This document shows positions 9,437 to 37,730 of a stretch of DNA of 43,557 nt, piece after piece; within the stretch, counting starts at the first letter, position 1, and each line of letters starts with the position of its first letter. Origin of the DNA: Actinomycetota bacterium (GTDB lineage Bacteria > Actinomycetota > Actinomycetes > S36-B12); assembly GCA_046095085.1 (NCBI GenBank), contig JBJTIQ010000069.1, positions 1 through 43,557 of the forward strand. The letters run 5' to 3'. Below the pieces are notes generated by a model. The model made no database searches. It was given only the letters and a program-made list of their open reading frames with translations, and had not been told where the DNA came from. The position numbers were made by a program, and so were the translations under genes.

Positions 9437-9437
<1 letters not shown>

Positions 9438-11968: not shown

Positions 11969-12973
11969 ATGGCAAAGACACCTCTCAGCCCTCGACAGTG
12001 GCATCCTCCCAAGGACGTCGGCCTCCGTGGTCCCTTCGCGCCCAATGCCGCGCTGGCCGACGTCGACGTCATTCCCATCCCCGGCACGGGGGCCGAGGAT
12101 GTCGCTGTCGACAGCCAGGGGCGCATCTACACCGGCACCCGCGAGGGCTACATCCTGCGCATCTCCCCCGATGGGCGCCACGTCGAACGCATCGTGCAAA
12201 CGGGCGGGCGTCCCCTTGGGATCGAGATCCACCCCGACGGCTACCTCATCGTGTGCGACGCGCATCGCGGCCTGCTTCGCATCCATCCCGACACCGCGGA
12301 GGTGGAGGTCCTCATCAGCGAGGTCCACGGAGTACCGCTGCGCATAACCAACAACTGCGCGATCGCAGCCGATGGGACCATCTACTTCTCCGACTCATCC
12401 CAAGACTTCGGCCTCGATGAGTTCAAGGGCGACATTATCGCCCACACGGGCAGTGGCCGACTGCTGCGCAGGCAGCCCGATGGCACGATCGAGGTGCTGC
12501 TCGACGGCCTCAACTTCGCCAACGGTGTCGCCCTCGCTGACGACGAGTCCTTCGTCCTTGTTGCCGAGACCAGCGGCTACAGCGTGGTGCGTCTGGACCT
12601 GACCGGCCCCTCCGCGGGCCGTCGTTCAGTGATCATCGAGAACCTTCCGGGGCTTCCCGACAACATGTCGACAGGGTCCGATGGGGTCTTTTGGATCGCG
12701 ATGCCATCCGTCCGCAACAAGCTCCTCGACCTACTCCTGCCCAGGCCAGGATTCCTGCGCAAGGCCATCTGGGCGATGCCCGACAGGTTGCAGCCGGATG
12801 CGTCCCGCATCACCTGGGTCATCGGCATCAACGGTGAAGGCACCGTCGTTCGCAACCTGCAAGGACCGGGGACCGCTTATCACTACGTCACCGGGGTCCG
12901 CGAGTACGACGGCAAGCTCTATCTCGGCAGCCTGGTCGAGCCCGGCGTGGCCGTCGTCGAGTTGAAGCGCTAG
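11969..12973 (+). CDS. strictosidine-synthase-like / SMP-30-gluconolactonase-type beta-propeller protein
   Basis: The pattern AEDVAVDSQGRIYTG, RPLGIEIHPDG.LIVCDA, TNNCAIAADGTIYFSDSS, FANGVAL and DNMSTGSDGVFWIA is typical of the Str_synth/SGL six-bladed propeller. Confidence 0.6.
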   Translation: MAKTPLSPRQWHPPKDVGLRGPFAPNAALADVDVIPIPGTGAEDVAVDSQGRIYTGTREGYILRISPDGRHVERIVQTGGRPLGIEIHPDGYLIVCDAHRGLLRIHPDTAEVEVLISEVHGVPLRITNNCAIAADGTIYFSDSSQDFGLDEFKGDIIAHTGSGRLLRRQPDGTIEVLLDGLNFANGVALADDESFVLVAETSGYSVVRLDLTGPSAGRRSVIIENLPGLPDNMSTGSDGVFWIAMPSVRNKLLDLLLPRPGFLRKAIWAMPDRLQPDASRITWVIGINGEGTVVRNLQGPGTAYHYVTGVREYDGKLYLGSLVEPGVAVVELKR

Positions 12974-23316: not shown

Positions 23317-24363
23317 CTACTCCTCGAAGAGCGGAATCACCGAGGTCGCATCCCAGGCCACTCCCACGTCACTGCCTCGTGATGGCAGTACGTCGTCACG
23401 CACATTGGCGAGAAAGGCCACCTCGTCGACCTTCACGAGGGCAAGGGCGTGATCCCCCTGGAAGTAGACCTCCTGCACCGTCCCGCGACGCACGGCGGCA
23501 GCGTCGTCGGTCGTGGTCAGGCGCACAGCCTCGGGCCTGAGGGCAATGGCTATGGCACCTGCGCAGTCCGCGCCTGCAGCGATGGCTCCGACGCCCACGG
23601 CCTGCCATGCACCGTCGGCGTATGTGCCCTTCAGGATGGTGCTCGAGCCGATGAAGTCGGCCACGAAGATGCTGCGCGGACGACGATAGAGGTCGAGGGG
23701 CGCATCGAGCTGTCGCACGACCCCCTCGTCCATCACGGCCACCCGGTCGGCCAGGCTCATGGCCTCGTCCTGATCGTGGGTGACGACGACAAACGTGATA
23801 CCGACTTCATGTTGAAGTCGCTTGAGCTCGATCTGCATCTCGCCACGGATCTTTCGGTCGAGAGCGGAGAGCGGCTCATCGAGAAGCAGGAGTCGCGGGC
23901 GCTTCACGATGGCGCGGGCAAGGGCGACCCGCTGACGCTGTCCACCGCTGAGCTCACGCGGCAGTGATGAACGCTTGTCGGTCAGGCCCACGGTCCGAAG
24001 GACCTCGTCGACCCGGGCGCGGATCTCATCGCGCGGCAACCTCTCGCAGACGAGGCCATAGGCGACATTGCGCTCGACGGTCATGTGCGGAAAGAGCGCG
24101 TAGGACTGGAACATCAGGTTGACGGCCCGCTTCTCGGGAGGAATGGGCAGCAGGTCGACACCATCGAGCGTGACCGTGCCCTCATCGGGCTGCTCGAAGC
24201 CGGCGATCACGCGCAACAGCGTCGTCTTGCCGCACCCCGATGGACCGAGCAGCGCGAAGAACTCGTTTTCGTGGATCTCCAAGCTGACGTCGTCGAGAGC
24301 ACGTGTGTCGCCGAAGGAGCGGCTGACGCCGTGAATGTTGAGCAACGCGGTGCCGGCGGTCAC
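23317..24363 (-). CDS. ABC transporter ATP-binding protein (PotA/polyamine-opine importer type)
   Basis: Walker A GPSGCGKTT, signature LSGGQRQRVALARA, Walker B LLLLDEPLSALD, and a C-terminal TOBE-like regulatory domain. Confidence 0.9.
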   Translation of the reverse strand: MTAGTALLNIHGVSRSFGDTRALDDVSLEIHENEFFALLGPSGCGKTTLLRVIAGFEQPDEGTVTLDGVDLLPIPPEKRAVNLMFQSYALFPHMTVERNVAYGLVCERLPRDEIRARVDEVLRTVGLTDKRSSLPRELSGGQRQRVALARAIVKRPRLLLLDEPLSALDRKIRGEMQIELKRLQHEVGITFVVVTHDQDEAMSLADRVAVMDEGVVRQLDAPLDLYRRPRSIFVADFIGSSTILKGTYADGAWQAVGVGAIAAGADCAGAIAIALRPEAVRLTTTDDAAAVRRGTVQEVYFQGDHALALVKVDEVAFLANVRDDVLPSRGSDVGVAWDATSVIPLFEE

Positions 24364-25148
24364 GGTCGCGCCTCCCTTCGACGAAGCGAGTCTCCCAGGC
24401 GGGACGTTCGCTGGATGAGCAGAACGGCGATGAATGACACGAGCAGCAGGAGGGTGGCGAGGGCATTCACCTGTGGTGTCACGCCGAAGCGCACGCTCGA
24501 GTAGATGACAATGGGCAACGTCGGGTCAGCGGGTGACGCGGTGAAGAACGCGACGGTGAACTCGTCGAGGCTGAGCGTGAAGGCCAGGAGCGCGCCGGCG
24601 ATGATCGCCGGACGGATGCCCGGAAGCGTGACGCTCCAGAAGGTCTTCAGGCTTGACGCCCCCAGGTCGCGACTGGCTTCTTCGAGGCTGGAGTCCATGC
24701 CAGCGAGGCGCACGCGCACCACGGCGGCGACGAACGCGATCCCGAAGACCGAGTGCGCGAGGATCACGCTGAAGGCCCCGAGGGTGAAGTTGACCAGCGT
24801 GTAGAAGGCGAGCAAGCCGATCGCCAGCATGATGTCGGGCATCACAGCGGGTGCGGCTGCCGCAGCGTCGAGGAACCGAGACGGGAAGTAGCGCTCGAGG
24901 GCCAGGGCCAGCAGCGTGCCGAGAATCACGGAGATCACCGTCGTGCCCGACGCCACGATGAGGGTGGTGCGAAGACCTCCCATGATGTCGGCATCCTGGA
25001 GAAGCGCCGGATACCACTCGAGCGAGAAGCCGCTCCACAGGAACGGATTGTCGGAGGCGTTGAAGCTCATCACGATAACGACGGCGATGGGCACGTAGAG
25101 GAAGATGTAGAGCACCCATAGTGGAGCAACACCCATGGCGCGCCTCAT
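24360..25148 (-). CDS. ABC transporter permease (PotC-like)
   Basis: ATG at 25148 overlaps the upstream stop (TGATG). EAA loop LEEASRDLGASSLKTFWSVTLPGIRP; six TM segments. The ORF extension to 25427 is rejected. Confidence 0.85.
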   Translation of the reverse strand: MRRAMGVAPLWVLYIFLYVPIAVVIVMSFNASDNPFLWSGFSLEWYPALLQDADIMGGLRTTLIVASGTTVISVILGTLLALALERYFPSRFLDAAAAAPAVMPDIMLAIGLLAFYTLVNFTLGAFSVILAHSVFGIAFVAAVVRVRLAGMDSSLEEASRDLGASSLKTFWSVTLPGIRPAIIAGALLAFTLSLDEFTVAFFTASPADPTLPIVIYSSVRFGVTPQVNALATLLLLVSFIAVLLIQRTSRLGDSLRRREARP

Positions 25149-26026
25149 CAGGCACCCCACTTGCGCGAACGGCGCGCCGCGCTCGCCTGCAGCATGACGA
25201 TGATGACCAGCAGCGCGAGTACGAGCAAAGACAGGGCAGAGCCGAACGGCCAGTCGCGGGACTTCAGGAACTGATCGCGAATGAGATTTCCGATCATCTG
25301 GGAGTTGCCACCACCGAGGAGCTCGGGGATCACGAAGTTGCCCAAACTCGGGATGAAGACGAAGAGGCAGCCCGTGATGATTCCCGGCATCGTGAGCGGA
25401 AGGAGGATCGTGCGAAATCGACGCCACGGCCCAGCCCCGAGGTTGCAGGCAGCTTCGAGGAGCATCGGATCGAGTCGCTGCAGGGAGGCGTATACGGGCA
25501 GGACCATCAGCGGGATGTAGGCGTAGGTGAGACCGAGGATCACCGCCTCACGCGTATAGAGGACCTCGATGGGCCCGAGACCGATGAGCGCCAGTCCGTC
25601 GCTCAAGATCCCCTCTCGGTTGAGCAGCAGGATCCAGGCGTAGGTGCGGATGAGGAAGTTGGTCCAGAAGGGCAGGACCACGGCGATCAGCGCAACGGTC
25701 TGCCAACTCGGCGATAGGCGGGTGATCGCGAGAGCGGCCGGGAAGCCGATGAGGAAGGCGATGAACGTCGCGAGCCCGGCATTAACCACGCTGGAGGCCA
25801 GCACCTCGAGGTACAGCGGCTGGAAGAGTCGGGCGATGTTGTCAAGAGTCGCCGGGCCCTGCACGCCGCCGAAGCGGCCCGAGGTCAAGAAGGCGTAGGC
25901 GATGACGAGGCCGAGCGGAATGACCATGAGGACGAGCAGGTAGACAAGCGCCGGCACGCTGGAGAGTGCACGCAGCAGGGGCCCGTCGCCGCGGCGACGG
26001 ACCCCTGCTGTCGCGCGTGAGGTCAA
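25148..26026 (-). CDS. ABC transporter permease (PotB-like)
   Basis: EAA loop LEAACNLGAGPWRRFRTILLPLTMPG; six TM segments. It overlaps the SBP gene stop. Confidence 0.85.
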   Translation of the reverse strand: MTSRATAGVRRRGDGPLLRALSSVPALVYLLVLMVIPLGLVIAYAFLTSGRFGGVQGPATLDNIARLFQPLYLEVLASSVVNAGLATFIAFLIGFPAALAITRLSPSWQTVALIAVVLPFWTNFLIRTYAWILLLNREGILSDGLALIGLGPIEVLYTREAVILGLTYAYIPLMVLPVYASLQRLDPMLLEAACNLGAGPWRRFRTILLPLTMPGIITGCLFVFIPSLGNFVIPELLGGGNSQMIGNLIRDQFLKSRDWPFGSALSLLVLALLVIIVMLQASAARRSRKWGA

Positions 26027-27141
26027 CTCGCTTGAACCTCGGTGGCGATCTGCTGGTAGATCTTCGACGCGGCGCCGAGGTCGACCAGGCTTTCGCCCTT
26101 GGCCAGATCAGCCGGCGTCATGGCGATGTTGGGGAAGTCCGCCCCGAGCTCCGCGGCCGCCTTCTCGGCGACCGTCTTGTTGGGGCTCTTGTAGAGGATG
26201 TTGTTGGTCATCCATGACTGCATCTCATCACCAATCATGAAGTTGATGTAGGCCATGGCGGCTTCCTTGTTCTTGCTGGACTTCAGCACCACCATCGTGT
26301 CGGCCCACAGGTCGGCACCCTCGGACGGCACCACGAACTTCACGTTTGGATCGCCCGAGTAGTTGCACCAGCCATCCCACGCAACGGCCATGACGACCTC
26401 ACCGGCAGCCAGGCGGCTGTAGAAGGTCACGTCATCGAAGCCCAGCAGGGTGGGCTTGGTCTTGAGCAGCTGCTGCTTGATCTGCTCGAGCTCACCCTCG
26501 TCGGTGGTGTTGGCGCTGAAGCCGAGTGCCTTGGCCGCGGGCAGGTTCAGCCACGGCTGGGTCGCCAGCATCAACGTCTTCTTCTCGTATTCGGGCGCGG
26601 GATTGAGCAGGTCGTTCCATGAGGTGGGCGGGGCGGCCATGAGGTCCTCGCGGTAGCAGATGCCCGTTGTGCCCCAGGCGTAGGGAACGCTGAACGTGCT
26701 GCCCGGATCGAACGACAGGTTCTTGCTCTCCGGGTAGAGGTTGGCCATGTTGGGCACGAGGCGGGGATCGATCGGCTCGAGCAGCCCGGCCTCATTGAGC
26801 GCCTGCGCATATTGGCCCGACACGAAGGCAACATCGATGCCCGGATCGCCACCCGCGGTCAACTTACCGACGATCTCCTCGTTGGTCGCATGCTTGGCGA
26901 CCGTGATGTTGGCCTTCGTGGTGTCGGTGAACTTCAACGCAACGTCCGGATCCATGTAGGCATCCCAGTTGCTGACAACGATCGACTGCTTACTCAGATC
27001 GGCGCTGGGGTCAAGCGACGGAGAGGGACTTGCATCTCCGCCTGAGGATCCGCCACCGCATGCGGCCAGGAGGACGGCACAGACCGCTCCCGCGATGCCG
27101 AGGACGGAGGCCCGACGGGCCCGTGTCCGCTGTGTTGCCAT
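26023..27141 (-). CDS. ABC transporter substrate-binding lipoprotein (PotD/PotF family)
   Basis: ATG at 27141 after AAGGAG. Lipobox LLAAC-GGG. VVSNWDAYMDPDV...NEEIVGKLTAGG and PYAWGTTGI match the polyamine/opine-binding family. The ORF extension to 27501 is rejected. Confidence 0.85.
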   Translation of the reverse strand: MATQRTRARRASVLGIAGAVCAVLLAACGGGSSGGDASPSPSLDPSADLSKQSIVVSNWDAYMDPDVALKFTDTTKANITVAKHATNEEIVGKLTAGGDPGIDVAFVSGQYAQALNEAGLLEPIDPRLVPNMANLYPESKNLSFDPGSTFSVPYAWGTTGICYREDLMAAPPTSWNDLLNPAPEYEKKTLMLATQPWLNLPAAKALGFSANTTDEGELEQIKQQLLKTKPTLLGFDDVTFYSRLAAGEVVMAVAWDGWCNYSGDPNVKFVVPSEGADLWADTMVVLKSSKNKEAAMAYINFMIGDEMQSWMTNNILYKSPNKTVAEKAAAELGADFPNIAMTPADLAKGESLVDLGAASKIYQQIATEVQAS

Positions 27142-27170
27142 CTCTTCTCCTTCTCTCCTGTAACGCCACG

Positions 27171-27851
27171 TCACGAGGACTGCTCGCGACGACTCAATTG
27201 GATTTCGGGGAGGTCGCCGAGATCGACTCCCAGTTGCTCGCACGCAAACGAGCGAATCAGGCCGCGAACCCGCCCAAGAGGGGTCCACGAGTAGCCGACG
27301 ACCGTGCGGAAGCACAGGCCATCGACCATGGCGCTGATGCGTTCGGCCACCACCTCCGGCTCGCTCACGGGATGGAAGGCACCCGCAGCGGTGCCCTCCT
27401 GGACGAGCTTCACGAGTTCGTCGCGGTAGTCGGCGGCGAGCTCCTCGCACAGTGGCTGCAGCGAGGCATCGTGCGTCGCCGCCGTCCAGAGTTCGAGCCA
27501 AAGGACGTATTCGTCGTAGAGCACGCCCGGATGGGGAAGGCTGACCTCGAGGAGCGTGGCCAGCACCGTGAGGTAGTCGCCGTCGCGACGAAGCGCAGCA
27601 AAGCGCTCCGCCGGCTTGCCGATCGCCCAGCGCAGGGCGTCGACGAGCATCTCGTCCTTGCTGCCGAAGTAGTAGTGCACGATGCCGGTCGACACCCCGG
27701 CCTCGACGGCTACGTCCCGCACGCGCATGCCCGCCGAGCCGTCGCGCACCAGGACCCGCGCTGCTGCGGCCATGAGGTGCTCACGGCGGTCGAGGGCGTC
27801 ATCCGCCGACAGATTCGGCGGAATGGCCACCGACACATCCATGAGCGCCAT
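27171..27851 (-). CDS. TetR/AcrR-family transcriptional regulator
   Basis: HTH region MRVRDVAVEAGVSTGIVHYYFGSKDEML. It is the first gene of the minus-strand importer operon and is divergent from the gene at 27911. Confidence 0.85.
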   Translation of the reverse strand: MALMDVSVAIPPNLSADDALDRREHLMAAAARVLVRDGSAGMRVRDVAVEAGVSTGIVHYYFGSKDEMLVDALRWAIGKPAERFAALRRDGDYLTVLATLLEVSLPHPGVLYDEYVLWLELWTAATHDASLQPLCEELAADYRDELVKLVQEGTAAGAFHPVSEPEVVAERISAMVDGLCFRTVVGYSWTPLGRVRGLIRSFACEQLGVDLGDLPEIQLSRREQSS

Positions 27852-27868
27852 ACCTTGGGACTGTACTG

Positions 27869-27882
27869 ACTGGACGTCCAGT
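27869..27882. promoter_or_regulatory. candidate TetR operator (perfect 14-bp palindrome ACTGGACGTCCAGT)
   Basis: A perfect inverted repeat in the 59-bp divergent spacer between the TetR gene (start 27851) and the saccharopine-dehydrogenase-like gene (start 27911). It is flanked by a direct TTGGGAC repeat (27855-27861 and 27882-27888). Confidence 0.45.
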
Positions 27883-27910
27883 TGGGACCGGAAACCGGGA
27901 AAGGACCCCC

Positions 27911-29080
27911 ATGCGGATCGGTGTCGTCGGCGGCGCGGGGGCCATGGGCTCGGTCACGGTTGCCGACCTGGCGGGCTCCGCCGGCATCACCGAGGTCGTC
28001 ATCGTCGATCCCGATATCGAGCGCGCCCGCGCCCTCGCCGAGCGTCTCGACGGACGTGAGGCAGCCCTCGTCGCGCGCGGCATCGACGCACCCCTCGCCG
28101 TCAGCCTCGCCGGCTGCGCTGCCGTAGTAAATGCCTCCGGCCATGCCCACAACATCGCGGTCATGGAGGCCTGTCTCGAAGTAGGAGCCCACTACACCGA
28201 TCTCGGCGGCTTGTTCCACGTCGCCGTGCGTCAATACGACTGGCATCAACGCTTTGTCGACGCCGGGCTGACGGCCACGCTGTCGATGGGATCGGCTCCC
28301 GGCCTCACCAACCTGATGGCTGCACGCGGAGTCGAACTCGGGCAACTCGACACCGTTGAGTCCATCGAGATTGCCGATGCCGTCGTACCCGGTCGGCAGT
28401 ACCACCCCTCGGAGCCCTACGGCCCGCCGTACGCCGCGCTGACCCTCATCGAGGAATACACCGCTCCCGCGCCGCAATTCGTCGATGGTGCCATCGGTTT
28501 CTACCCGGCAGGGTCGGGAGCCCGCACCTACGCATTCCCCGGCGGTGAGGTGGAGTGCGTCTACACGATCCACTCGGAGCCGGCCACCCTGCCGAGGTCC
28601 TACGCCGACCGCGGGATCGAGCGAGTCGAATGGCGACTAGGCCTCGCCCCGGCCGACCACGTGCGACTGCTGTCCTTCGTGGCCTCCGGGCTGGCCAGTG
28701 AGGAGCCGGTGGTCGTCGACGGCGTGAGCGTGCGTCCTGCCGACGTGCTGATCGCTGTGTTGGCCCGCCAGGCACGTGCCGATGCGGCAACGCCTGATCC
28801 CGATGCGGTGGAGTGGTTCCGGGTCATCACCACGGGCTCGCGCGATGGTGCCCGAGTCACCGTGACATGCGATGTGAAGGTGACCGACCCACCGTCCGGG
28901 GAGTTCTCCGGCGGCGCCTGGGTGACCGGCGTACCGCCGTCGATCGCCGCCCAGATCATGGCCTCGGGCCGAGCCCTGCGCACCGGCGTACACGGACCCG
29001 AGCTCACCATGCCCCTTGACCTGTTCTTCACCGAGCTTGCCGGGCGGGGCATGATCCCGCTAGACCAGATCGACGACTGA
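27911..29080 (+). CDS. saccharopine dehydrogenase-like NAD(P)-binding oxidoreductase
   Basis: Rossmann motif MRIGVVGGAGAMGS; HYTDLGG, SAPGLTN and a C-terminal Sacchrp_dh_C-like region (LIEEYT.PA..F.DG). Product is 389 aa. Confidence 0.75.
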   Translation: MRIGVVGGAGAMGSVTVADLAGSAGITEVVIVDPDIERARALAERLDGREAALVARGIDAPLAVSLAGCAAVVNASGHAHNIAVMEACLEVGAHYTDLGGLFHVAVRQYDWHQRFVDAGLTATLSMGSAPGLTNLMAARGVELGQLDTVESIEIADAVVPGRQYHPSEPYGPPYAALTLIEEYTAPAPQFVDGAIGFYPAGSGARTYAFPGGEVECVYTIHSEPATLPRSYADRGIERVEWRLGLAPADHVRLLSFVASGLASEEPVVVDGVSVRPADVLIAVLARQARADAATPDPDAVEWFRVITTGSRDGARVTVTCDVKVTDPPSGEFSGGAWVTGVPPSIAAQIMASGRALRTGVHGPELTMPLDLFFTELAGRGMIPLDQIDD

Positions 29081-29093
29081 CCGCGGAGGCACC

Positions 29094-30386
29094 ATGGCTG
29101 ATCGACCCCTCACTGTGCTCCTCGCCGCCGAGAGCGCCTACGGCCCCACCAACAACTGCATCGGCATCGGCGCCGAACTCATCAAGATGGGGCACCGAGT
29201 CGTCTTTGCCGCCGAGGAATCCTGGGCCGGCAAGATCGAGCCACTCGGCATCGAAGAGCGGCTGGTCTCTATGGCTCCCCCACCCGAGGAGGAGGCAGCC
29301 GCCGGTCAGTTCTGGATCGACTTCATCCGCGATACCTCTCCGGAGTTCCGCAAGAGCACGTTCGACCAGATCACGACGTTCATCGAGCCCGTGTGGCGCA
29401 GTCTCATGGATGGGGCAACATACGCAAACCCGCAGTTCGCCGCGATCGTCGATGAGATTGCCCCCGACATCATCGTGCAGGACAACGTGTCGGCCTTCCC
29501 CGCGCTCAAGGCGGCCGGTCGGCCGTTCGTGCGGCTCGTGTCATGCCAACCGCTCGAGATGACCGGGCCCAAGCTCCCTCCCGCGCTAGCCGGACTCCCC
29601 GCCGACGACTCAAGCCAATGGCAGGCGTGGCGCGATGAATACGCGCGCGTCAATGCTGGCGTATGGGCCGAATACAACGAGTTCTCGCAGGACTCAGGTG
29701 CCGGGCCTCTGCCTGCGGGCGAGTTCAACTACGTCGGCGATGCCAACGTCTACATCTACCCCTCGGTCGTGGACTACGTCGATCGGCGACCTCTCGACGC
29801 CACCTGGCATCGGGTGCAGTCATCCGTGCGCCGCACCGAGCAGCCGATCGACGTGCCCGCTCACATCCTCGAGGGTGACGGATCCCTGGTCTACCTCTCG
29901 CTCGGTTCGCTCGGCGGAGCAGACATCGACCTCATGAAGCGACTCACGGGCTTCCTCGCCGACAGCCCCCACCGCTTCATCGTCAGCAAGGGTCCCCGCG
30001 CTGACGAGTGGGAGGTCCCCGACAACATGTGGGGCGCGGGCATGGTGCCGCAGACCACGCTCCTCGACAAGGTCGACCTGGTCATCACGCACGGCGGCAA
30101 CAACACGACGTGTGAGTCCTTCCACTTCGGCAAGCCCATGGTCGTCCTGCCGCTCTTCTGGGACCAATACGACAACGCCCAACGCGTCGACGAGACCGGT
30201 TTCGGAAGGCGACTCGACACCTACCGTGTCGAGAAGGCGCAGCTCAACGCCGCCATCGACACGCTCCTGGCCGACACCGCGCTGCGCGAGCGCATGGCCG
30301 ACATCTCGCGCCAGATCCGGGCCGAAGACGGCGTTCGCCGCGAGGCGGAGATCATCGCTGACCTAGGGAAGTCCGCGGCACGCTGA
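29094..30386 (+). CDS. GT1-family (UDP-glycosyltransferase/MGT-like) glycosyltransferase
   Basis: C-terminal nucleotide-sugar motif VITHGGNNTTCESFHFGKPMVVLPLFWDQYDNA. The N-terminal acceptor domain has the GxxxP pattern AAESAYGPTNNCIGIG. Confidence 0.8.
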   Translation: MADRPLTVLLAAESAYGPTNNCIGIGAELIKMGHRVVFAAEESWAGKIEPLGIEERLVSMAPPPEEEAAAGQFWIDFIRDTSPEFRKSTFDQITTFIEPVWRSLMDGATYANPQFAAIVDEIAPDIIVQDNVSAFPALKAAGRPFVRLVSCQPLEMTGPKLPPALAGLPADDSSQWQAWRDEYARVNAGVWAEYNEFSQDSGAGPLPAGEFNYVGDANVYIYPSVVDYVDRRPLDATWHRVQSSVRRTEQPIDVPAHILEGDGSLVYLSLGSLGGADIDLMKRLTGFLADSPHRFIVSKGPRADEWEVPDNMWGAGMVPQTTLLDKVDLVITHGGNNTTCESFHFGKPMVVLPLFWDQYDNAQRVDETGFGRRLDTYRVEKAQLNAAIDTLLADTALRERMADISRQIRAEDGVRREAEIIADLGKSAAR

Positions 30387-31333
30387 TGAAGCCTGACCTG
30401 TTCGAGCGCGATCTGCTCGACATCCCGTCGCGCCTCGAGCAGCTCGCCACCCGTCTCGACGCCGGCGACCCGTGGTCGTTTGTCACCTCCCGCAACGCGC
30501 TCCTCAGCGGCATGGGCTCCTCGCAGTACGCCGCGCGCTCCGCGGCGGGGTGGCTGCGCAACAGGGGTGTGGGCGTCGTCGACGAGATCGCCTCGACCGA
30601 CCCGGGCTGGCCGGGCGGCCCGGGCACCTCCGCCATCCTCATCTCGGCGTCGGGAGGGTCTGCCGAGACGCTCGACCGCAGCGCGCGCCTCGCCGATGGC
30701 ACGCAACGCATCGCGCTGGTCAACACGATCGACTCCGCGCTCGCGCGAGAGTCCGACGCCGTCATTGCGATGGATGCGGGGCCGGAGACAGGCGAGGTCG
30801 CCTGCCGCAGCTACCGCCACACCATCGCCCTGCTGCTGGCGCTGGCGTATCCCGAGGCAGACATCGCCGCGGCGTGCCGTGCTGCCGCTTCTCACACGCG
30901 CGCCTTGCTCGCCGACACTTCATGGCTCGATGCAATCGACGAGCTCCTCACGCCCACGGAGACGACGTACTGGATTGCGCCGGAGAGTCGCATCGGGTCC
31001 GCGCTGCAGTCAGCGCTCATGATGCGAGAGGTACCCCGACGCCCGGCGGTCGGATGCGAGACCGGCGACTGGAGCCACGTCGACGTCTACCTGACCCTCA
31101 CCACCGACTATCGATGCGTCGTCTTCACCGGGTCGAGCTGGGATGCGCAGGCCACCGCCTGGCTCACCAAGCGCGAGTCCCGTGTGGTCAGCGTGGGCGA
31201 TGCACTCGGCGTGCCGGGCGAGCTCCATCTGCCCATGCCCGGCGATCCCTTCACCCGCATGCTGTGCGAGACGATCGTCGCCGAGCTCCTGGCCCTGCGC
31301 TGGTGGCGCAGCAGCCCCGTCGAGGTCGCATGA
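30386..31333 (+). CDS. SIS-domain sugar-phosphate isomerase/deglycase-like protein (GlmS-isomerase/FrlB-like)
   Basis: ATG overlaps the GT stop (TGATG). SIS motifs LLSGMGSSQYAA and ILISASGGSAETLD, followed by a second SIS-like half. Confidence 0.75.
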   Translation: MKPDLFERDLLDIPSRLEQLATRLDAGDPWSFVTSRNALLSGMGSSQYAARSAAGWLRNRGVGVVDEIASTDPGWPGGPGTSAILISASGGSAETLDRSARLADGTQRIALVNTIDSALARESDAVIAMDAGPETGEVACRSYRHTIALLLALAYPEADIAAACRAAASHTRALLADTSWLDAIDELLTPTETTYWIAPESRIGSALQSALMMREVPRRPAVGCETGDWSHVDVYLTLTTDYRCVVFTGSSWDAQATAWLTKRESRVVSVGDALGVPGELHLPMPGDPFTRMLCETIVAELLALRWWRSSPVEVA

Positions 31334-32562
31334 CCCTGCTCGACGAGGTCCGATCAGACCTGGGCCGCGTTTCCGCCGACGACCTCGTCCCGGCCCTCCG
31401 ACACGGACAGCTGCCCGCGATCGAGCAGATCGACGACGTCGCCCCGCTGTCGCCCGATGTCGCCGTCGCCGCTATCCGGCTCACGGACTCCCGCGAATTC
31501 TTCGTGCCACTCGTACACGACCGCAGCTGGCGACGGGCCGAGCCCGGTGACGGCGTGAGCATGGCAGCGCTCGATGCGCCGGCGCCGATCGTGGTGGAGC
31601 ACCTTAATCCGCTGCCCGCCGTCGCCACCGGTCGCGAGCGTGCGATCGACGTCGACATGACCAACGACGTGCGCGTCATCGATGACTCGGTCGTCGTCAA
31701 ATGGCAGTTCCTGCGCCAATCGGGATCTCTCATCGGTCCTCGCGTGGTGTCGCATCTGTGGTCCGCTGGTTTTCGCGAACTTCCAGAGCCATTCGCCACG
31801 GTGCGCTGGAACGACGACCTCCTGGTGTCCTTCGCGAGATTCCTCCCGGGAGCCGAGGACGGGTGGGAGTGGATGCTCGACGATGTCCGCCGGATGCTTG
31901 CCGGCGAGGCACCCGCGCCTTCGTGGCCGGAGGTGGTCGGCCAGCTAGCGGCTCGGATGCATGCCGCTGCCGTGCACCCGACTCAGCTCATCGATCACCC
32001 GGTCGAGCGCCGCTCGCTGGCCCCCATCGCTCAGCACTACCGGGCGCTTCTTGACTCGACCCTCGACGCCGAGTTGCGGGCGGCGGTCGAGCGCTGGCGT
32101 TCGGGATTCATGGATGCGTGCGACACATTGACCGCCGCGGATGACGTCGACGTCATGCCCATTCATGGAGACCTGCACCCCGGTCAATTCCTCCGGTGGC
32201 GTGATGGCGTTGCCATCTGCGACTTCGACGGCAACCCCACTCTTCCCGCACACCTCCGGACCCTTCGAGGGCCCACCGCGCAGGATGTCGCGGGCATCCT
32301 GCGCGGATTCGATCACGTGGCGATCGCGGCCGCCCGCCACACGGGCGAGTCTGCGGCGCTCGGACCAGCCCGCGAGTGGGCCCGCGATGCGCGAGGCAGG
32401 GCCTTATCGGCGTATCGCAGTGAGCCGGGCGTCCCCGCCCTCGACGAGTCGGTGCTAGGCGCCCTCGAGACGTTGTCGCCCCTGCACGAGGCGGTCTACG
32501 CCACGACATACCTGCCGCGCTGGCGCTACGTCCCCCTGGCGGTGCTTGACGGAGGCTGGTAG
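31330..32562 (+). CDS. maltokinase-like (Mak/Pep2-fold) sugar kinase, possibly glucosamine-kinase type
   Basis: ATG overlaps the SIS stop (ATGA). An N-terminal cap-like region is followed by the catalytic loop MPIHGDLHPGQFLRW and the metal site ICDFDGNP, very like the maltokinase HGDLHLGQVL / DFEGEP. Confidence 0.7.
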   Translation: MTLLDEVRSDLGRVSADDLVPALRHGQLPAIEQIDDVAPLSPDVAVAAIRLTDSREFFVPLVHDRSWRRAEPGDGVSMAALDAPAPIVVEHLNPLPAVATGRERAIDVDMTNDVRVIDDSVVVKWQFLRQSGSLIGPRVVSHLWSAGFRELPEPFATVRWNDDLLVSFARFLPGAEDGWEWMLDDVRRMLAGEAPAPSWPEVVGQLAARMHAAAVHPTQLIDHPVERRSLAPIAQHYRALLDSTLDAELRAAVERWRSGFMDACDTLTAADDVDVMPIHGDLHPGQFLRWRDGVAICDFDGNPTLPAHLRTLRGPTAQDVAGILRGFDHVAIAAARHTGESAALGPAREWARDARGRALSAYRSEPGVPALDESVLGALETLSPLHEAVYATTYLPRWRYVPLAVLDGGW

Positions 32563-32563
32563 C

Positions 32564-33601
32564 TCAGGCGCCCATCTCGCCACTGATAGCCGCCACAAAC
32601 CCATCGACGTCTTCAGGTGTCGTATCCCATGAGCACATCCACCGAACTTCACCGGTGCGCTCATCCCACTCGTAGAACCGATAGTGCTGCTGCAGCCGGG
32701 CCGTGACGTCGCGTGGCAGGTAGGCGAAGACGGCATTGGCATCAACTCGTCGAGCGATTGTGACGCCGGGGATCTCCTTCACGCCTTCAAGGAGCCTCTG
32801 TGCCATCGCATTGGCGTGCGAAGCGTTGCGGCGCCACAGATCGTCGGTGAGAAGAGCGCACAACTGGGCGCTGACGAAGCGCATCTTGCTGGCCAACTGC
32901 ATGGACGACTTGCGTAGGAACGGCACCGCATGCGCAAGACCTGGATCGAGCACGACGACGGCTTCGGCTCCCAGGGCGCCGTTCTTGGTGCCACCGAACG
33001 ACACGATGTCGATGCCCACGTCGGTCGTGATGGCGCGGAGGTCCACGTTGAGACCAGCAGCGGCATTGGCGATGCGCGCGCCATCGAGGTGGACCTTCAT
33101 GCCCAGGCCGTGCACATGGTCGACGAGGGTGCCGAGCTGGTCGACGGAGTACGCCGTGCCGAGCTCGGACGACTGCGTCACGGTGACGACGGCCTGCTGC
33201 GCCCGATGAACGTCGCCGAAGCGCACGGCATGGAGATCGATGGCCTCGGGAGTCAGGAGCCCATCGGCCGTGGGCGTGGTCCAGAGCTTCAGGCCGGCGA
33301 CCTTCTCGGGTGCGCCTCCCTCATCCACGTTGACGTGGGCGGTGTCGGAGCAGACGACCGCCTCCCACGGGCGGCAGATGGCCGACAGGGCCACGACGTT
33401 GGCACCGGTGCCATTGAAGACGGGGAAGACCTCGGCCTGCGACCCGAAGTGATCGCGCACGAGGTCAGCAAGGCGCGCCGTCTCGTCGTCCTCGCCGTAG
33501 GCCACCGCGTGACCGGCATTGGCGCGCACAACGGCATCGAGCACCTCCGGGTGCGCGCCGGCGTAGTTGTCGCTCGCGAAGCCTCGCCAGGGTGCGCTCA
33601 T
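32564..33601 (-). CDS. low-specificity threonine aldolase (PLP-dependent, beta-eliminating lyase family)
   Basis: ATG at 33601. FASDNYAG..PEV, NGTGANV and the PLP-lysine motif SFGGTKNG. The ORF extension to 34033 overlaps the SDR gene and is rejected. Confidence 0.85.
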   Translation of the reverse strand: MSAPWRGFASDNYAGAHPEVLDAVVRANAGHAVAYGEDDETARLADLVRDHFGSQAEVFPVFNGTGANVVALSAICRPWEAVVCSDTAHVNVDEGGAPEKVAGLKLWTTPTADGLLTPEAIDLHAVRFGDVHRAQQAVVTVTQSSELGTAYSVDQLGTLVDHVHGLGMKVHLDGARIANAAAGLNVDLRAITTDVGIDIVSFGGTKNGALGAEAVVVLDPGLAHAVPFLRKSSMQLASKMRFVSAQLCALLTDDLWRRNASHANAMAQRLLEGVKEIPGVTIARRVDANAVFAYLPRDVTARLQQHYRFYEWDERTGEVRWMCSWDTTPEDVDGFVAAISGEMGA

Positions 33602-33602
33602 C

Positions 33603-34277
33603 TCAGGCCTCCGTGAGATCCATGCGCGTGCCGTTGGGCACGTCACCGTCGACGATCCCACGGATCGCTGCCGCGAGGTCAGAGGTATCCGTGTATCCCT
33701 TGAAGGCCTTGTCAGGGTCGCTCGCCCGCATGCTCTCGTCGACCAGTGCCATGACCGCCACGATCGCCGCCCGCGCCTGAGAATCCTTGAAGGAGTTGGC
33801 GAGCCCGCCCACCCAGGTCTCGGCGGCCGCCTTGGCCGTGGCGTAGGCGACGTTGCCCGCGGTGGGCCTGGTGGCGGACGTGCTCGAGACCATGACGTAG
33901 CAGCCGCCGGCATCGATGAGAGCGTCGCGGAAGGCGACGGTGGTCGTGCGGACAGTGCCGAAGACGCCCGGCGCGATCGAATCCCAGGCATCGAGCGCGG
34001 ACCGGTCGACAGTCGTGGATCCCTGCCATCCACCGACGAGGTGCACGACGGCGTCGATCCGCCCGTGTCGAGCGATCACGTCGTCGCGGAAACGAGCCAG
34101 GTCGTCGACGTCCAGCAGATCCACGACGGCAGCCTCTCCACCGACCGCATCGGCAGCCGCGTGCGCGAGATCCTCGCGACGGTCGACGACGATCACCAGA
34201 TAGGTCGAGCCCAGTGCCTTCGCCACGGCACGACCGCCCATGCCCGCGCCCAGCACGATGGCGACGGGCCGGCTCAT
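33603..34277 (-). CDS. SDR-family oxidoreductase
   Basis: IVLGAGMGGRAVAKAL nucleotide fold, catalytic YATAKAA (YxxxK), 224 aa. The start overlaps the stop of the upstream gene (ATGA). Confidence 0.75.
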   Translation of the reverse strand: MSRPVAIVLGAGMGGRAVAKALGSTYLVIVVDRREDLAHAAADAVGGEAAVVDLLDVDDLARFRDDVIARHGRIDAVVHLVGGWQGSTTVDRSALDAWDSIAPGVFGTVRTTTVAFRDALIDAGGCYVMVSSTSATRPTAGNVAYATAKAAAETWVGGLANSFKDSQARAAIVAVMALVDESMRASDPDKAFKGYTDTSDLAAAIRGIVDGDVPNGTRMDLTEA

Positions 34278-36361
34278 ACGGTCGCTCCGGTGATGCCGCG
34301 CGCGGAGTCGATGGCGGGTGCGAGGGCCTTGCGCAGCGACTCGTAAAAGACGTTGAGCGGGAACTCATCGGGAAGGACGGCATCCACCGCCTCCTTGAGT
34401 TCACCCGGCAGGGCCTGAGCGCCCTGGGCCCAGACCGACTGGGGATGCGGCGGCACGAGCGCACTCACGAACTCGTAGGCCGCGATCCAGTGGCCGAGGC
34501 GGGAGCGGTCGATGCCCTCGCGGTAAAGCGCGTCAACCTCGGCGCACAGGGCGTTCATCGCACCCTGCACGCCACTCCAGTCGATGCGCAGGGTGTTGTC
34601 GGTCCAGCGGATCACGTCGTGCTTGTGCAGCCACGCGAAGATGATCTGGCCGGCGAGTCCGTCGTAGTTGCGCACCCGCTCACCGGTGGTCGGGAAGCGG
34701 AAGAGCCGGTCGAAGAGGATCGCGATGCGCACGTAGGGGGCGAGCACGATGCCCCGCTCCCCCAAGGCCTCGGTCTCGCGGAAGGTCGACAGGTCGCAGC
34801 GCAACTCCTCGAGGCCGTACATCCAGTAGGGCATGCGCTGCTTGATCATGAAGGGGTCGAAGGGCAGGTCGCCGTGGCTGTGGGTGCGATCGTGCACGAG
34901 GTCCCACAGGACGAAGGTCTCCTGGGCGATGGCCTGGTCGTTGAGCAGGAGTTCGGCCTCCGGGGGCAGGTCCAGGCGAAGTCGGTCGGCGGCCGCCCGC
35001 GACACCCGGCGGAACCGAGCGGCCTCGCGGTCGCAGAAGATCCCTCCCCAACTGAAGGGCACCACCTCACGGGTCGCGACCGTCTCGGGGAAGAGGACCG
35101 CCGAGTGAGTGTCGTATCCCGACGTGAAGCCCATGAACTCGATCGGAACGAAGGCGGCGTTGTCGTACGACGTGGCCTCGAGCTCGGCGATCCAGTCGGG
35201 CCACACGGTGCGGATGGTGACAGCCTCGACATTGCGGTTGGGATTGCCATTTTGCGTGTACATGGGAAACACGACGACGTGCTCGATGCCATCGCGACGC
35301 ACGGACTCCGGGTGGAAGGTCATCAGCGAGTCGAGGAAGTCAGGCACGCCGAATCCACCATCGCGCCAAGCCCGGAAGTCATTGGTCACCGCCTCGATGT
35401 ATGCGGCCTGGTGCGGCACGTGGGGAGCAAGCTCGTGCAGCGCCGCCACGATCTCTTCGACGCGAGCCGATGCGACGTCAGGGTCGCCGACGATCGCGCC
35501 GTCCTTGGCCTGCAGGGGACGCAGAGCTTCGACGGCGGTGGTCAGCCGCTCCCATGCGGGACTGGAGATGACGACACTGGCCGCGGCGGTCTGCCCGCTC
35601 AACCGTGGACCCGCGGCCGCCCAGGTGACCAACGCTCGCCACAGGGCCCGATTGCCCACGTCGTCGATGGAGTCGTCACCGGCGAAGTCGGAGTCGGCCG
35701 CCACCACGACCCGCCCGGCACCCACTGACACGCCGACCAGCACCGGAGCATTGGCTGGTGATGCGGTGGGCGAGCTGGTCGCGAAGGCGTAGGCGTCGGA
35801 TTGGTCAGCCTGAACCTCTAGGACTCCCGATCGATAGAAGCACGCTGCCTGGACGTCGGCGAAGACGGTGCAGCCATGCGCATCATGTGGTTCCAGCATG
35901 ATCCATGTGGATACATCGTTGAATCGGGCAACCGGGTCTTGCGCCGTCGCATTGACGACGCCCACGCCAAAGAGCTGGGCAATGGCTCCCAGGTTGTTGC
36001 CGTACTTCGCCTGCTCTGTCTCGGCGAGGACCACCAGGCCCCCACCCCGTCGTACGAAGCCTTCGATGACGGAGATCTCATCACCGGAGTAGACCGGAGA
36101 CCCCACGCCGACCGTCGACTCCCACGCATCGTCGGAGCAATGGGGCAGCACCAGCACATCAACATCGGCAAGAATCCCCGCCGTGAGCGGACCGTCGACA
36201 TGGACCGCGACGTCGAAGCCAGCCACGGCGAGGGTGCGAGCCGCCTCGGCGTAGGACGAATCGGCGGGGTTGGCCGGGCTCATGTGTGCGGCCACCTCGG
36301 GCCGGGTCGACCACGCCTGGCGGTGGCTCTCGTCGACCATGACCTTCTTGAGCGGACGCAT
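34274..36361 (-). CDS. two-domain protein of unknown function (N-terminal GATase1/DUF4350-like domain plus C-terminal uncharacterised HxxxH-containing domain)
   Basis: A 695-aa ORF with strong GC3 coding bias. The N-terminal roughly 250 aa (DVLVLPH...EGFVRRGGGLVVLAE) resemble a non-catalytic class-I amidotransferase-like fold. The C-terminal part carries LVHDRTHSHGD...GLEELRCD. No confident family assignment. Confidence 0.6.
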   Translation of the reverse strand: MRPLKKVMVDESHRQAWSTRPEVAAHMSPANPADSSYAEAARTLAVAGFDVAVHVDGPLTAGILADVDVLVLPHCSDDAWESTVGVGSPVYSGDEISVIEGFVRRGGGLVVLAETEQAKYGNNLGAIAQLFGVGVVNATAQDPVARFNDVSTWIMLEPHDAHGCTVFADVQAACFYRSGVLEVQADQSDAYAFATSSPTASPANAPVLVGVSVGAGRVVVAADSDFAGDDSIDDVGNRALWRALVTWAAAGPRLSGQTAAASVVISSPAWERLTTAVEALRPLQAKDGAIVGDPDVASARVEEIVAALHELAPHVPHQAAYIEAVTNDFRAWRDGGFGVPDFLDSLMTFHPESVRRDGIEHVVVFPMYTQNGNPNRNVEAVTIRTVWPDWIAELEATSYDNAAFVPIEFMGFTSGYDTHSAVLFPETVATREVVPFSWGGIFCDREAARFRRVSRAAADRLRLDLPPEAELLLNDQAIAQETFVLWDLVHDRTHSHGDLPFDPFMIKQRMPYWMYGLEELRCDLSTFRETEALGERGIVLAPYVRIAILFDRLFRFPTTGERVRNYDGLAGQIIFAWLHKHDVIRWTDNTLRIDWSGVQGAMNALCAEVDALYREGIDRSRLGHWIAAYEFVSALVPPHPQSVWAQGAQALPGELKEAVDAVLPDEFPLNVFYESLRKALAPAIDSARGITGATV

Positions 36362-36449: not shown

Positions 36450-37730
36450 GTGGCTGCGCCCAGGCCCTACCGTCGCTACGGTCGTGGGGTGCGCACGAAC
36501 TGGTCCGGCACGGTCGCCTTCGAGCAGCCGCTGGTGCTGCCCACGAGCCTCGATGAGGTCCGGTCGCTAGTCCGCGAGAACGAACGCGTGCTTGCCGTGG
36601 GGTCGGCGCACTCATTCAGTCGCGCGGCGGTGTCGAGCGGCCTTCACCTCGGCACCGAAGATCTCCCCGCCGACATCGACGTGGCGCCTGATCGCTCGAC
36701 AGTCACCGTTTCGGCCGGCATGCGCTACGCCGAGCTCGGCCGTGCACTCCACGCGCAGGGCCTTGCCCTCGCCGCCATGGCATCGCTGCCCCACATCAGC
36801 GTGGGCGGCGCCGTGGCCACGGGCACGCACGGATCAGGCGACGCAATAGGCACGCTGTCGTCTGCGGTCACCGCACTCGAGGTCGTCACGCCCGACGGCG
36901 ACGTGCGCGAGGTACGGCGCTCCGATGCGGACTTTGCCGGGTGGATCGTGGCACTCGGCGCACTCGGCGTCGTCACGAGAGTCACGCTGGCCGTCGAGCC
37001 GACATACGAAGTCGCTCAGAGCGTGTTGCTCGGCCTCGATCTCGACGAGGTGGAGGCGAACTTCGACGCGGTATTCGGCGCGGCCACTTCGGTGAGTGTC
37101 TTCACCCGATGGCGCCCCGAGCCCGACGCGCAACTGTGGCTGAAGAGGCGCGTAGACCGGGAGGGCGCGTGGAAGGGCGCGCCAGACTTCAGGGCCCAGG
37201 TGAGTGAGCGCAAGATGCACCCGCTGGAAGACCTCGATCCGGTGCACTGCACGGAGCAGTTGGGACACGCAGGTCCGTGGCACGAGCGGCTCCCGCACTT
37301 CAAGGCGGAATTCACCCCGAGTTCGGGCGATGAGATCCAGGCCGAATACCTGCTGCCGCGTGTGCGTGCGGTGGAGGGCATCCGGGCGATGCGCGCCATG
37401 GCCGACCGCATCACGCCGCTCCTTCACGTCACCGAGATTCGCACGATGCGAGCAGACGATCTGTGGATGAGCCCGGCATACGGACATGGCACCGTCGGCA
37501 TCCACTTCACGTGGCACAAGGACGAGCGCATCTTCGACGTGCTTCCTGCCATCGAAGATGCGCTACTGCCGCTGGGTGCACGTCCCCACTGGGGCAAGGT
37601 GACATGCGCCACACCCGCTCAACTGGTGGCCGCGTATCCCCGCATTGACGACTTTCGCGGCCTCGTGAATGCCGTAGACCCCCTGGGCAAATGCCGAAGC
37701 ATCGTGGTTGACAGCCTGATGAACGCCTAG
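36450..37730 (+). CDS. FAD-dependent alditol oxidase / D-arabinono-1,4-lactone oxidase family flavoenzyme
   Basis: TNWSGTVAF, VGSAHSF, MASLPHISVGGAVATGTHGSG, WHERLPHFKAEFTPSSG and the C-terminal RPHWGK resemble Streptomyces alditol oxidase as I recall it. The start is GTG 36450 or GTG 36489. Confidence 0.8.
   Translation: MAAPRPYRRYGRGVRTNWSGTVAFEQPLVLPTSLDEVRSLVRENERVLAVGSAHSFSRAAVSSGLHLGTEDLPADIDVAPDRSTVTVSAGMRYAELGRALHAQGLALAAMASLPHISVGGAVATGTHGSGDAIGTLSSAVTALEVVTPDGDVREVRRSDADFAGWIVALGALGVVTRVTLAVEPTYEVAQSVLLGLDLDEVEANFDAVFGAATSVSVFTRWRPEPDAQLWLKRRVDREGAWKGAPDFRAQVSERKMHPLEDLDPVHCTEQLGHAGPWHERLPHFKAEFTPSSGDEIQAEYLLPRVRAVEGIRAMRAMADRITPLLHVTEIRTMRADDLWMSPAYGHGTVGIHFTWHKDERIFDVLPAIEDALLPLGARPHWGKVTCATPAQLVAAYPRIDDFRGLVNAVDPLGKCRSIVVDSLMNA

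Follow-up and report, generated by a model that had tools for sequence, protein, structure and literature searches.

The 43,557-nucleotide (43.5-kb) stretch of DNA analysed here, contig JBJTIQ010000069.1 of an Actinomycetota assembly and called the window below, carries at 27911-32562 four tightly coupled plus-strand open reading frames (ORFs) that encode a dehydrogenase, a GT1 glycosyltransferase, a SIS protein and a glucosamine kinase (GlcNK)-family kinase (Table 1). An earlier note, made from the sequence of this stretch, had described four co-directional, coupled genes, and the ORF coordinates bear this out: the dehydrogenase and GT1 genes are separated by 13 nt (29081-29093) that contain a GGAGG ribosome-binding site, the GT1 and SIS genes share 1 nt in a TGATG junction, and the SIS and kinase genes overlap by 4 nt in an ATGA junction. 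Divergent from them runs a leftward operon, TetR-PotD-PotB-PotC-PotA, whose genes all lie on the minus strand; its TetR gene, 29 nt upstream of the binding-protein gene, is set apart from the four-gene operon by a 59-bp spacer. The G+C content of the window is 64-69%, and its nearest relatives come from freshwater: metagenome-assembled genomes (MAGs) with the label Actinomycetota or "Candidatus Nanopelagicales". The same four genes recur in the same order in at least 15 further loci from related MAGs and metagenomes, with kinase identity down to 52-56%. A scan for consensus promoters and terminators over 27000-33000 returned no site, and thus none inside the unit, such a scan being uninformative for high-GC Actinomycetota; an Rfam scan of the whole window gave no match, hence no glmS ribozyme or other riboswitch.

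Table 1. Features of the window, in order of position
Feature	Position	Strand	Description
Genes without evident link to the four-gene operon	3628-4605	+	
Genes without evident link to the four-gene operon	8061-10881	-	
Genes without evident link to the four-gene operon	10922-12973	+	
PotA-like ABC ATPase	23317-24363	-	last gene of leftward operon; Pfam ABC_tran and TOBE_2
PotC-like permease	24360-25160	-	BPD_transp_1; PotC model 211 bits
PotB-like permease	25148-26026	-	BPD_transp_1; PotB model 245 bits
PotD/PotF-family lipoprotein binding protein	26023-27141	-	remodelled pocket; SBP_bac_8/6/1; lipobox LLAAC
TetR-family regulator	27171-27851	-	first gene of leftward operon; BetI-type C-terminal domain; TetR_N and TetR_C_6
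Candidate TetR operator block	27863-27887	.	25 bp in the 59-bp spacer; perfect 14-bp palindrome ACTGGACGTCCAGT at 27869-27882
Gene 1, dehydrogenase	27911-29080	+	389 aa; Pfam Sacchrp_dh_NADP and Sacchrp_dh_C
Gene 2, GT1 glycosyltransferase	29094-30386	+	430 aa; Pfam EryCIII-like_C, UDPGT
Gene 3, SIS protein	30386-31333	+	315 aa; Pfam SIS
Gene 4, GlcNK-family kinase, Ser/His sister clade	31330-32562	+	410 aa; no Pfam match; NCBIfam GlcN_kinase, PDB 6HWJ
GntG/threonine-aldolase-like PLP enzyme	32564-33601	-	convergent operon 32564-36361
SDR	33603-34277	-	convergent operon
DUF6421/DUF4350 protein	34274-36361	-	convergent operon
FAD_binding_4/ALO sugar-lactone-oxidase-like gene	36489-37730	+	divergent from the DUF6421 operon

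The two divergent operons appear to be joined by their common spacer. A 25-bp block in it is identical in 11 aligned orthologous spacers, while the flanking spacer bases vary. The block occurs nowhere else in the window, where chance predicts 0 matches. The palindrome at its centre is present in exact form once per locus in 15 loci of the window's lineage, and where the TetR or dehydrogenase gene was mapped its place in the spacer is the same or nearly so; the other 113 loci lack it. The TetR gene itself is kept in all lineage loci. An invariant palindrome of this kind has the expected form of a TetR operator common to both divergent operons, and the divergon is most likely controlled by its own TetR repressor. 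As far as sequence can tell, the four-gene operon and the importer are co-regulated through this candidate operator; the connection of importer and TetR gene with the operon, first proposed from their arrangement, is thereby strengthened, as it is by a distinctive PotD-type subtype that recurs beside GT1 in rearranged distant loci.

That subtype is defined by its ligand pocket. The binding protein belongs to the PotD/PotF family (1POT, 1A99, 4EQB; E 1e-42 to 1e-30 across the family, 4e-40 against E. coli PotD structures), and in an alignment of ~30% identity it keeps the PotD ligand positions W34, Y37, S83, W229, W255, D257 and Y293, among them the aromatic box and Asp257. Five further positions of E. 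coli PotD are in contrast all replaced (Glu36 to A, Tyr85 to Q, Asp168 to T, Glu171 to W and Gln327 to L). Asp168 and Glu171 of E. coli PotD are key for polyamine binding. This pocket signature is common to every GT1-adjacent homologue that aligns (22-25 per position), with P85 and Q327 in L072 and V327 in three loci as exceptions, whereas it is absent from three Pot-type proteins of the same loci that are not adjacent to GT1 and that keep an acid at 171. Because Asp168 and Glu171 are lost and a Trp is gained in the pocket, classical spermidine and putrescine are improbable ligands; an enlarged aromatic cage with a single anchoring Asp would suit either a bulky cation or a monoamine that bears a neutral or sugar-like part. 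Nothing points to the import of opines, which had also been suggested for this transporter. The PotA-like ATPase scores 350 bits on the NCBIfam polyamine PotA subfamily, slightly below cutoff, and its position is kept in orthologous loci; the start of PotC was set by codon-position scoring and by a 260-aa orthologue in locus L001.

For comparison, species-representative genomes were scanned with the kinase and metagenomes with GT1, and the neighbouring genes were called and clustered, gene calls and clusters of these loci being home-made. The lineage of the window is syntenic over Ldt, AsnC, PotABCD, TetR, then dehydrogenase-GT1-SIS-kinase, then aldolase-SDR-DUF6421, then the FAD oxidase, although lineage-wide synteny alone says little about function. 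Across 99 GT1 loci, many of them on contigs too short for judging partners, the kinase lies nearby in 39, SIS in 35, a PotD-like protein in 28, TetR in 21, an aldehyde dehydrogenase in 11 and a DAO-family FAD oxidase in 9. Among the distant loci, in which GT1 is 54-60% identical, L028-L032, which include the cultured Longivirga aurantiaca, and L088 have aminobutyraldehyde dehydrogenase (ABALDH)-DAO-PotACBD divergent from TetR-GT1-kinase-SIS. Variants of this layout are seen in L090 and L114, where the contigs end before an ABALDH is seen, in L105, where neither ABALDH nor DAO is seen, and in L098, which lacks the importer. In L076, the order is PotD-B-C-A-ABALDH-kinase-SIS on one strand with a 4-nt ABALDH/kinase overlap, divergent from AsnC-GT1-DAO with likewise 4-nt overlaps; GT1 and DAO also overlap in L109, and PotCBD is divergent from GT1 in L072, L092, L118 and L123. 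Four loci with a kinase like that of the window (L003, L019, L020 and L053) carry an aldehyde dehydrogenase downstream of the kinase on the opposite strand, immediately after it in L003 and L053. The aldehyde dehydrogenase of L032 scores 642 bits on the NCBIfam aminobutyraldehyde-dehydrogenase model, above its cutoff of 615, and the L032 FAD oxidase has no close solved relative in the PDB. No pattern emerged from the other recurrent neighbours (PNPOx-like, glyoxalase, M14 peptidase, cupin and STAND NTPase genes).

The earlier note had asked whether the four genes and the importer co-occur across Actinomycetota. They do so within the lineage, in which they are syntenic in at least 15 loci; the four-gene operon is, however, specific to that lineage, and outside the clade the dehydrogenase is missing from every locus and its place is occupied by the FAD oxidase and the aldehyde dehydrogenase. 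With tblastn, neither the window dehydrogenase nor its TetR was found in the distant loci; single-linkage clustering joined the two TetR groups through intermediates.

Do these genes serve one process? Two unrelated modules may be co-transcribed here only through genome compaction, one for polyamine uptake and oxidation (TetR, PotABCD and the dehydrogenase) and one for glucosamine salvage or catabolism (the kinase and a NagB-II-like SIS) accompanied by a GT1 of separate function. The kinase and SIS would suffice to convert glucosamine to fructose-6-phosphate, Pot, DAO and ABALDH would make a plausible putrescine route alone, GT1 often occurs without any of the others, and dehydrogenase homologues elsewhere are unlinked to GT1, SIS and kinase. 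We nonetheless consider this division unlikely, and we favour genes that work together, because amine and sugar genes are interleaved and translationally coupled in rearranged loci (ABALDH-kinase-SIS behind PotA and the GT1-DAO pair in L076, GT1-DAO in L109), because the specific pocket subtype of the binding protein tracks GT1 adjacency, and because a single conserved candidate operator serves both operons in the lineage. Our preferred, still tentative reading, to which we assign a probability of about 40%, is that the locus may be a co-regulated module for amine uptake and for the processing of an amine-sugar intermediate in an uncultured freshwater actinobacterium.

The sugar side of this module has a published counterpart. 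A maltokinase paralogue of actinobacteria is tightly linked to GT1 and SIS genes, and its representatives from S. jiangxiensis and M. smegmatis transfer a phosphate to O6 of glucosamine, the Km of SjGlcNK being 8 mM (Manso et al, 2019, mBio; PMC6520443), as the earlier note had correctly stated of a maltokinase-like glucosamine kinase beside a glycosyltransferase and a sugar isomerase. The role of that triad was left open, and a link to secondary metabolism was suggested; several triads lie inside predicted biosynthetic clusters (PMC6520443). The GT1, SIS and kinase genes of the window are a member of this published but unexplained GlcNK triad (6HWJ, MsGlcNK): the three families are tightly linked there and here, and the kinases belong to the same fold family with the same catalytic motifs (P-loop, VVKW Lys, HGD.H.GQ and DFD). 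The window kinase keeps the P-loop and has VDMTND, VVVKW, HGDLHPGQ and DFDGNP intact. They differ in gene order, which is GT1-kinase-SIS there and GT1-SIS-kinase in the window, in the leading dehydrogenase that the window adds, and in context, which here is an importer and TetR gene, not a biosynthetic cluster. We found no later literature on the triad, and none on bacterial glycosylated polyamines.

Within its family the window kinase stands apart. It matches the glucosamine kinase 6HWJ over residues 29-403 with E 4e-40, scores 200.8 bits on NCBIfam GlcN_kinase (NF041273; cutoff 550, against 417.5 bits for the canonical-type kinase of L032) and keeps five of the seven glucosamine contacts (Asp300, His302, Glu409, Tyr412 and Trp420). 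The proposed fingerprint of glucosamine kinases is Q-x2-RE-x2-YA-x3-LP-x-W, in which Gln405 gives glucosamine specificity and Arg408 holds glucosamine (PMC6520443). The window kinase reads S-PL-HE-AV-YA-TTY-LP-R-W instead, so that the comparison with the published glucosamine-binding residues, proposed when the locus was first described, fails at Gln405 (Ser) and Arg408 (His). These changes mark a sister clade, whose identity to canonical members does not exceed 39%: its 45 database clusters, 44-95% identical and all from metagenomes or MAGs, have Ser and His at 405/408 in 42 of 42 motif-matched cases, whereas the matches at 39% identity or below all have Gln at 405, with R or H at 408 in the canonical ones. 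Some members of the Ser/His clade have HRD instead of HGD, the catalytic Asp always being kept. In the sampled GT1-linked kinases the 405/408 pair is Q/R in 11, Q/H in 6, S/H in 19 and a maltokinase-like K/Y in 1, and these four states indicate a sugar pocket that is diversifying within the family. The K/Y case is a GT1-kinase-SIS locus, L127 (8355-11770), whose kinase has the maltokinase-like Lys...Tyr (KECYE) and DFEGEP.

That the window kinase is a true maltokinase supplying the GlgE alpha-glucan pathway is scarcely credible. Weak similarity to maltokinase (Mak) structures (E 1e-15 to 1e-12) and 54.8 bits on a TreS C-terminal model are outweighed by the far stronger similarity to GlcNK; the maltose contacts Lys426, Tyr429, Tyr370 and Arg438 of MtMak read Ser, His, His and Leu when aligned via SjGlcNK; and no treS, glgE or glgB is present among the scanned window genes. 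GlcNK-family enzymes, moreover, do not use maltose (PMC6520443). We have rejected this assignment on similarity, residues and context.

The SIS protein had been placed with the GlmS-isomerase/FrlB type. The first half of that assignment holds, as a profile of 19 homologues finds 7KQA best, then the NagB-II glucosamine-6-phosphate deaminases 8EOL/3HBA (1e-15) and the GlmS isomerase domains (1e-12), and the relation to FrlB deglycases is weaker (FrlB-like 3EUA 4e-5; 8GLR 2e-3). An FrlB-type deglycase was rejected on this difference between 4e-5 and 1e-15, similarity to FrlB/FraB deglycases being much weaker. With NagB-II, AgaS and GlmS (8EOL, 3HBA, 1MOQ) the protein has in common a two-SIS architecture, a Ser/Thr-rich phosphate loop (ISASGGSAET) and, in MMREV and DWSHV, the equivalents of GlmS Glu488 and His504, kept in 17 and 19 of the 19 family members, respectively. 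It differs from them in being shorter, in having no evident counterpart of the C-terminal Lys603 tail of GlmS, and in scoring at most 42 bits on all curated models against cutoffs of 381-430 (glmS 42.4 bits, cutoff 418; NagB-II 29.2 bits, cutoff 430). The two exceptions at Glu488, both Glu to Gln, are homologues in kinase-less loci: in L074 (8976-9935) and L094 (2593-3552), a GT1-adjacent SIS without a kinase reads RQGPR for REGPR, which suggests a non-catalytic or altered SIS.

Gene 1 had been called saccharopine-dehydrogenase-like, and its Pfam family is indeed Sacchrp_dh. Single-sequence and profile searches of the PDB nevertheless bring up carboxyspermidine dehydrogenase (CASDH) structures first (4RL6, 4INA, 8DEB and 8H4Z, E 1e-29 to 1e-22, of which 4RL6 and 4INA are mis-named CASDH entries) and Pyrococcus lysine dehydrogenase next (2e-7). 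An AlphaFold (AF2) model (pLDDT 87, pTM 0.86) has the three-domain CASDH fold, with Foldseek TM values of 0.80-0.84 for CASDH (8H4Z, 8DEB, 4INA and 4RL6), 0.73 for lysine dehydrogenase and ~0.7 for saccharopine reductases. The enzyme is thus CASDH-like rather than saccharopine- or opine-like; saccharopine, opine and lysine dehydrogenases were rejected as assignments because CASDH is closer by profile and by Foldseek. Compared with the active site described for CASDH (PMC10413350), H221, E223, T133 and E182 correspond to His228, Glu230, Ser144 and Glu188, so that the relay of CASDH/CANSDH is kept, but the triad His228-Glu229-Glu230 is incomplete and reads H221-S222-E223, with S222 invariant in the family alignment. 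Overall identity is only ~19%, and beta-2 ends in IVDPD in the window lineage, in IVDRD in a tier of 58% identity and in IASRT in 4RL6 and 8DEB. Since Asp here replaces the Ser-Arg that binds the NADP 2'-phosphate, the enzyme is predicted to be NAD-type, not NADPH-type. Unlike the CASDH/CANSDH genes, the window gene has no carboxyspermidine decarboxylase partner among the scanned window genes or lineage loci, and it is co-transcribed with sugar enzymes. Its reaction may be the formation or cleavage of a secondary amine that links a polyamine-type amine to an aldehyde, one that is not aspartate semialdehyde.

The dehydrogenase adjoins GT1 only in the window's lineage. Homologues of 58-59% identity occur in Gaiellales and further MAGs; in L045 (6676-9176), L046 (6676-9176) and L047 (3652-6152) they overlap the stop codon of a glutamine-synthetase-like (Gln-synt_C) gene, beside a PucR-type regulator and an ornithine-cyclodeaminase-like gene and, in L045 and L046, also GATase_6/GXGXG/Glu_synthase genes; one further homologue precedes an M20 peptidase. 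Judged by these neighbours, the Gln-synt_C-coupled homologues have an apparently amine-catabolic setting. L045-L047 look like an amine route similar to the N-methylglutamate pathway, with the CASDH-like enzyme in the place of N-methylglutamate dehydrogenase.

The GT1 is the most conserved component, 86-97% identical in the lineage, 66-78% in other loci with a Ser/His-type kinase and 50-60% in the most distant ones, the kinase dropping to 30-60% across these loci. The rates are unequal within a single syntenic block as well: between the window and L001 and L008-L018, the binding protein is 92-99% and GT1 86-97% identical, the SIS 63-82% and the kinase 52-88%. GT1 relatives occur on more than 581 metagenome contigs, and the best 80 retrieved are at least 55% identical. 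The nearest solved structures are those of the spider-mite enzymes UGT203A2 (E 2e-69) and UGT202A2 (E 8e-56). The donor motif is intact (HGGNNTTCE ... PLFWDQYDNA, with HGGNNTTxE in the family). In GT1 enzymes an N-terminal His is the catalytic (general) base; here YGPTN aligns with FGHVN/GPGHLN of the mite enzymes, and Pro stands at the His position in all 92 intact family members. The absence of the catalytic His suggests an acceptor that needs no deprotonation, or another base. Our literature search on the catalytic residues of UGT202A2 yielded nothing useful. The mite UGTs are presumably of bacterial origin, and this abundant actinobacterial family may be near the donor lineage of UGT202A2/UGT203A2.

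The APH fold of the kinase, that of aminoglycoside phosphotransferases and ELKs, and the score of the GT1 on the macrolide-glycosyltransferase models TIGR01426 and NF033129, below their cutoffs, raise the thought of an antibiotic- or xenobiotic-modification island that inactivates a cationic toxin under a TetR regulator, a family that often controls resistance genes. We hold this to be very improbable: the co-regulated transporter is an importer and not an exporter, the SIS and the dehydrogenase would be left unexplained, and the GT1 is 54-97% identical over ~100 loci sampled from soil, sediment and freshwater, often among housekeeping genes, which is atypical of resistance genes. SjGlcNK, furthermore, was inactive on four aminoglycosides tested (PMC6520443).

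How might the co-regulated module operate? Its catalytic steps, its catabolic direction and its substrates are all inferred. TetR would bind the spacer palindrome and keep both operons off until a substrate or derivative appears, whereupon the leftward operon would import a cationic amine other than classical spermidine or putrescine. The kinase would phosphorylate, at its 6-OH, a glucosamine-type sugar that departs from free glucosamine in the 2-N region, and the SIS protein would turn the amino-sugar 6-phosphate into a keto-sugar 6-phosphate, with release of an amine or ammonia. The dehydrogenase would oxidatively split, or form, the secondary C-N bond of a polyamine-type compound and so take the part that the FAD oxidase and aminobutyraldehyde dehydrogenase play in the sister loci. 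The His-less GT1 would make a sugar conjugate from a UDP-hexose and thereby join amine and sugar chemistry; its acceptor is the weakest step of the scheme.

Several points weigh against this scheme. The association with the importer could largely come from shared ancestry among related Actinomycetota, and the linkage of the dehydrogenase, found in a single lineage, amounts to one evolutionary event. In about half of the sampled GT1 loci, the GT1 stands without partners among housekeeping genes (such as cyclophilin, Ppx/GppA, Tad pilus and FBP aldolase), which offered no clue to its function, so that it could act without the other genes. Catabolic routes rarely include a transferase that consumes a UDP-sugar, and no aldehyde dehydrogenase lies beside the dehydrogenase in this window. 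The only kinase relatives that have been assayed act on free glucosamine, and the S. jiangxiensis triad is flanked by genes for phosphoglucomutase (PGM) and UDP-sugar pyrophosphorylase (UDPGP), which suggests an anabolic route (PMC6520443).

Such an anabolic glycoside pathway, along the lines of Manso et al, would take glucosamine salvaged by the kinase or made from fructose-6-phosphate by the SIS protein, activate it through a housekeeping mutase and uridylyltransferase, and have the GT1 transfer it to a small acceptor; the dehydrogenase would build a polyamine-analogue acceptor by reductive condensation from a precursor supplied by the importer. The PGM and UDPGP genes and the biosynthetic clusters around published triads fit this direction, a glycosyltransferase is by nature biosynthetic, its standing as the most conserved component suggests a conserved product, and carboxyspermidine dehydrogenases are biosynthetic (PMC10413350). 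The genes in and around the window fit it less well. Neither PGM nor UDPGP, nor any polyketide synthase (PKS), non-ribosomal peptide synthetase (NRPS) or cyclodipeptide synthase (CDPS), is found among the scanned genes of the window (several smaller genes were unscanned) or in the lineage loci, and on this ground we have rejected a secondary-metabolite cluster as the context. The recurrent partners are catabolic (FAD amine oxidase, aminobutyraldehyde dehydrogenase, importer and ornithine aminotransferase), the motif of the dehydrogenase is NAD-type rather than NADPH-type, and the kinase and SIS evolve much faster than the GT1. We therefore regard biosynthesis as a possible but doubtful explanation; the ~100 related loci point to a tie of the triad with the uptake and breakdown of amines, not with antibiotic synthesis.

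A more specific version of the co-regulated module, which we consider speculative and rather improbable, would be a route in which a glycosyl tag serves the catabolism of amines or polyamines, or else polyamine homeostasis, by analogy with the gamma-glutamyl (Puu) and acetyl routes. The GT1 would N-glycosylate the imported amine from a UDP-hexose, the free end would be oxidised by the FAD oxidase and aminobutyraldehyde dehydrogenase in most loci and by the NAD-dependent CASDH-like enzyme here, and the kinase and SIS would remove the tag and recover a sugar phosphate. The gene order of L076 would then match the order of the pathway: import; GT1 and oxidase; aldehyde dehydrogenase, kinase and SIS. 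The Puu pathway of E. coli (PuuP, PuuA, PuuB, PuuC, PuuD), which breaks down putrescine via a gamma-glutamyl tag, is a working analogy only. Like it, the sister loci place under one regulator an importer, steps for conjugation and de-conjugation, a DAO-family oxidase and an aldehyde dehydrogenase. Unlike it, they have no gamma-glutamyl ligase or hydrolase, conjugation would fall to a UDP-glycosyltransferase and de-conjugation to the kinase and SIS, and the window has the CASDH-like enzyme for oxidase and aldehyde dehydrogenase; homology is limited to DAO and Aldedh at the family level. If the route were true, free glucosamine, with its Km of 8 mM, would be only a surrogate substrate of the kinase family, and the Q/R, Q/H, S/H and K/Y pocket variants would track different tagged amines.

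Other genes of the window lie outside this argument. A convergent ORF at 32564-34033 was resolved into two genes, for a PLP aldolase and an SDR, which form with the DUF6421/DUF4350 gene a minus-strand operon whose end lies 1 nt from the kinase stop codon; the DUF6421 protein has no NCBIfam match. The DUF6421-SDR-aldolase set and the FAD oxidase gene divergent from it are kept across the lineage and absent from distant GT1 loci. Further away lie genes for an APH-family phosphotransferase, a PntAB transhydrogenase, and tocopherol-cyclase-like and strictosidine-synthase/SGL-like proteins.

In conclusion, the GT1-SIS-GlcNK triad, known since the kinase structure of 2019 and tentatively tied to antibiotic biosynthesis, has relatives that point to an importer subtype and to amine-oxidising enzymes. 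The existence of the Ser/His clade means that part of the kinase family falls outside the published fingerprint, and the labels "glucosamine kinase" or "maltokinase" are premature for proteins of that clade. Abundant in soil and freshwater Actinomycetota, highly conserved and without the canonical catalytic base, the GT1 family is a good target for study, and cultured carriers of the triad exist in Longivirga aurantiaca and Mycolicibacterium smegmatis. Freshwater actinobacteria are known consumers of polyamines and amino sugars, for which the module may be a trait of nitrogen and carbon acquisition.

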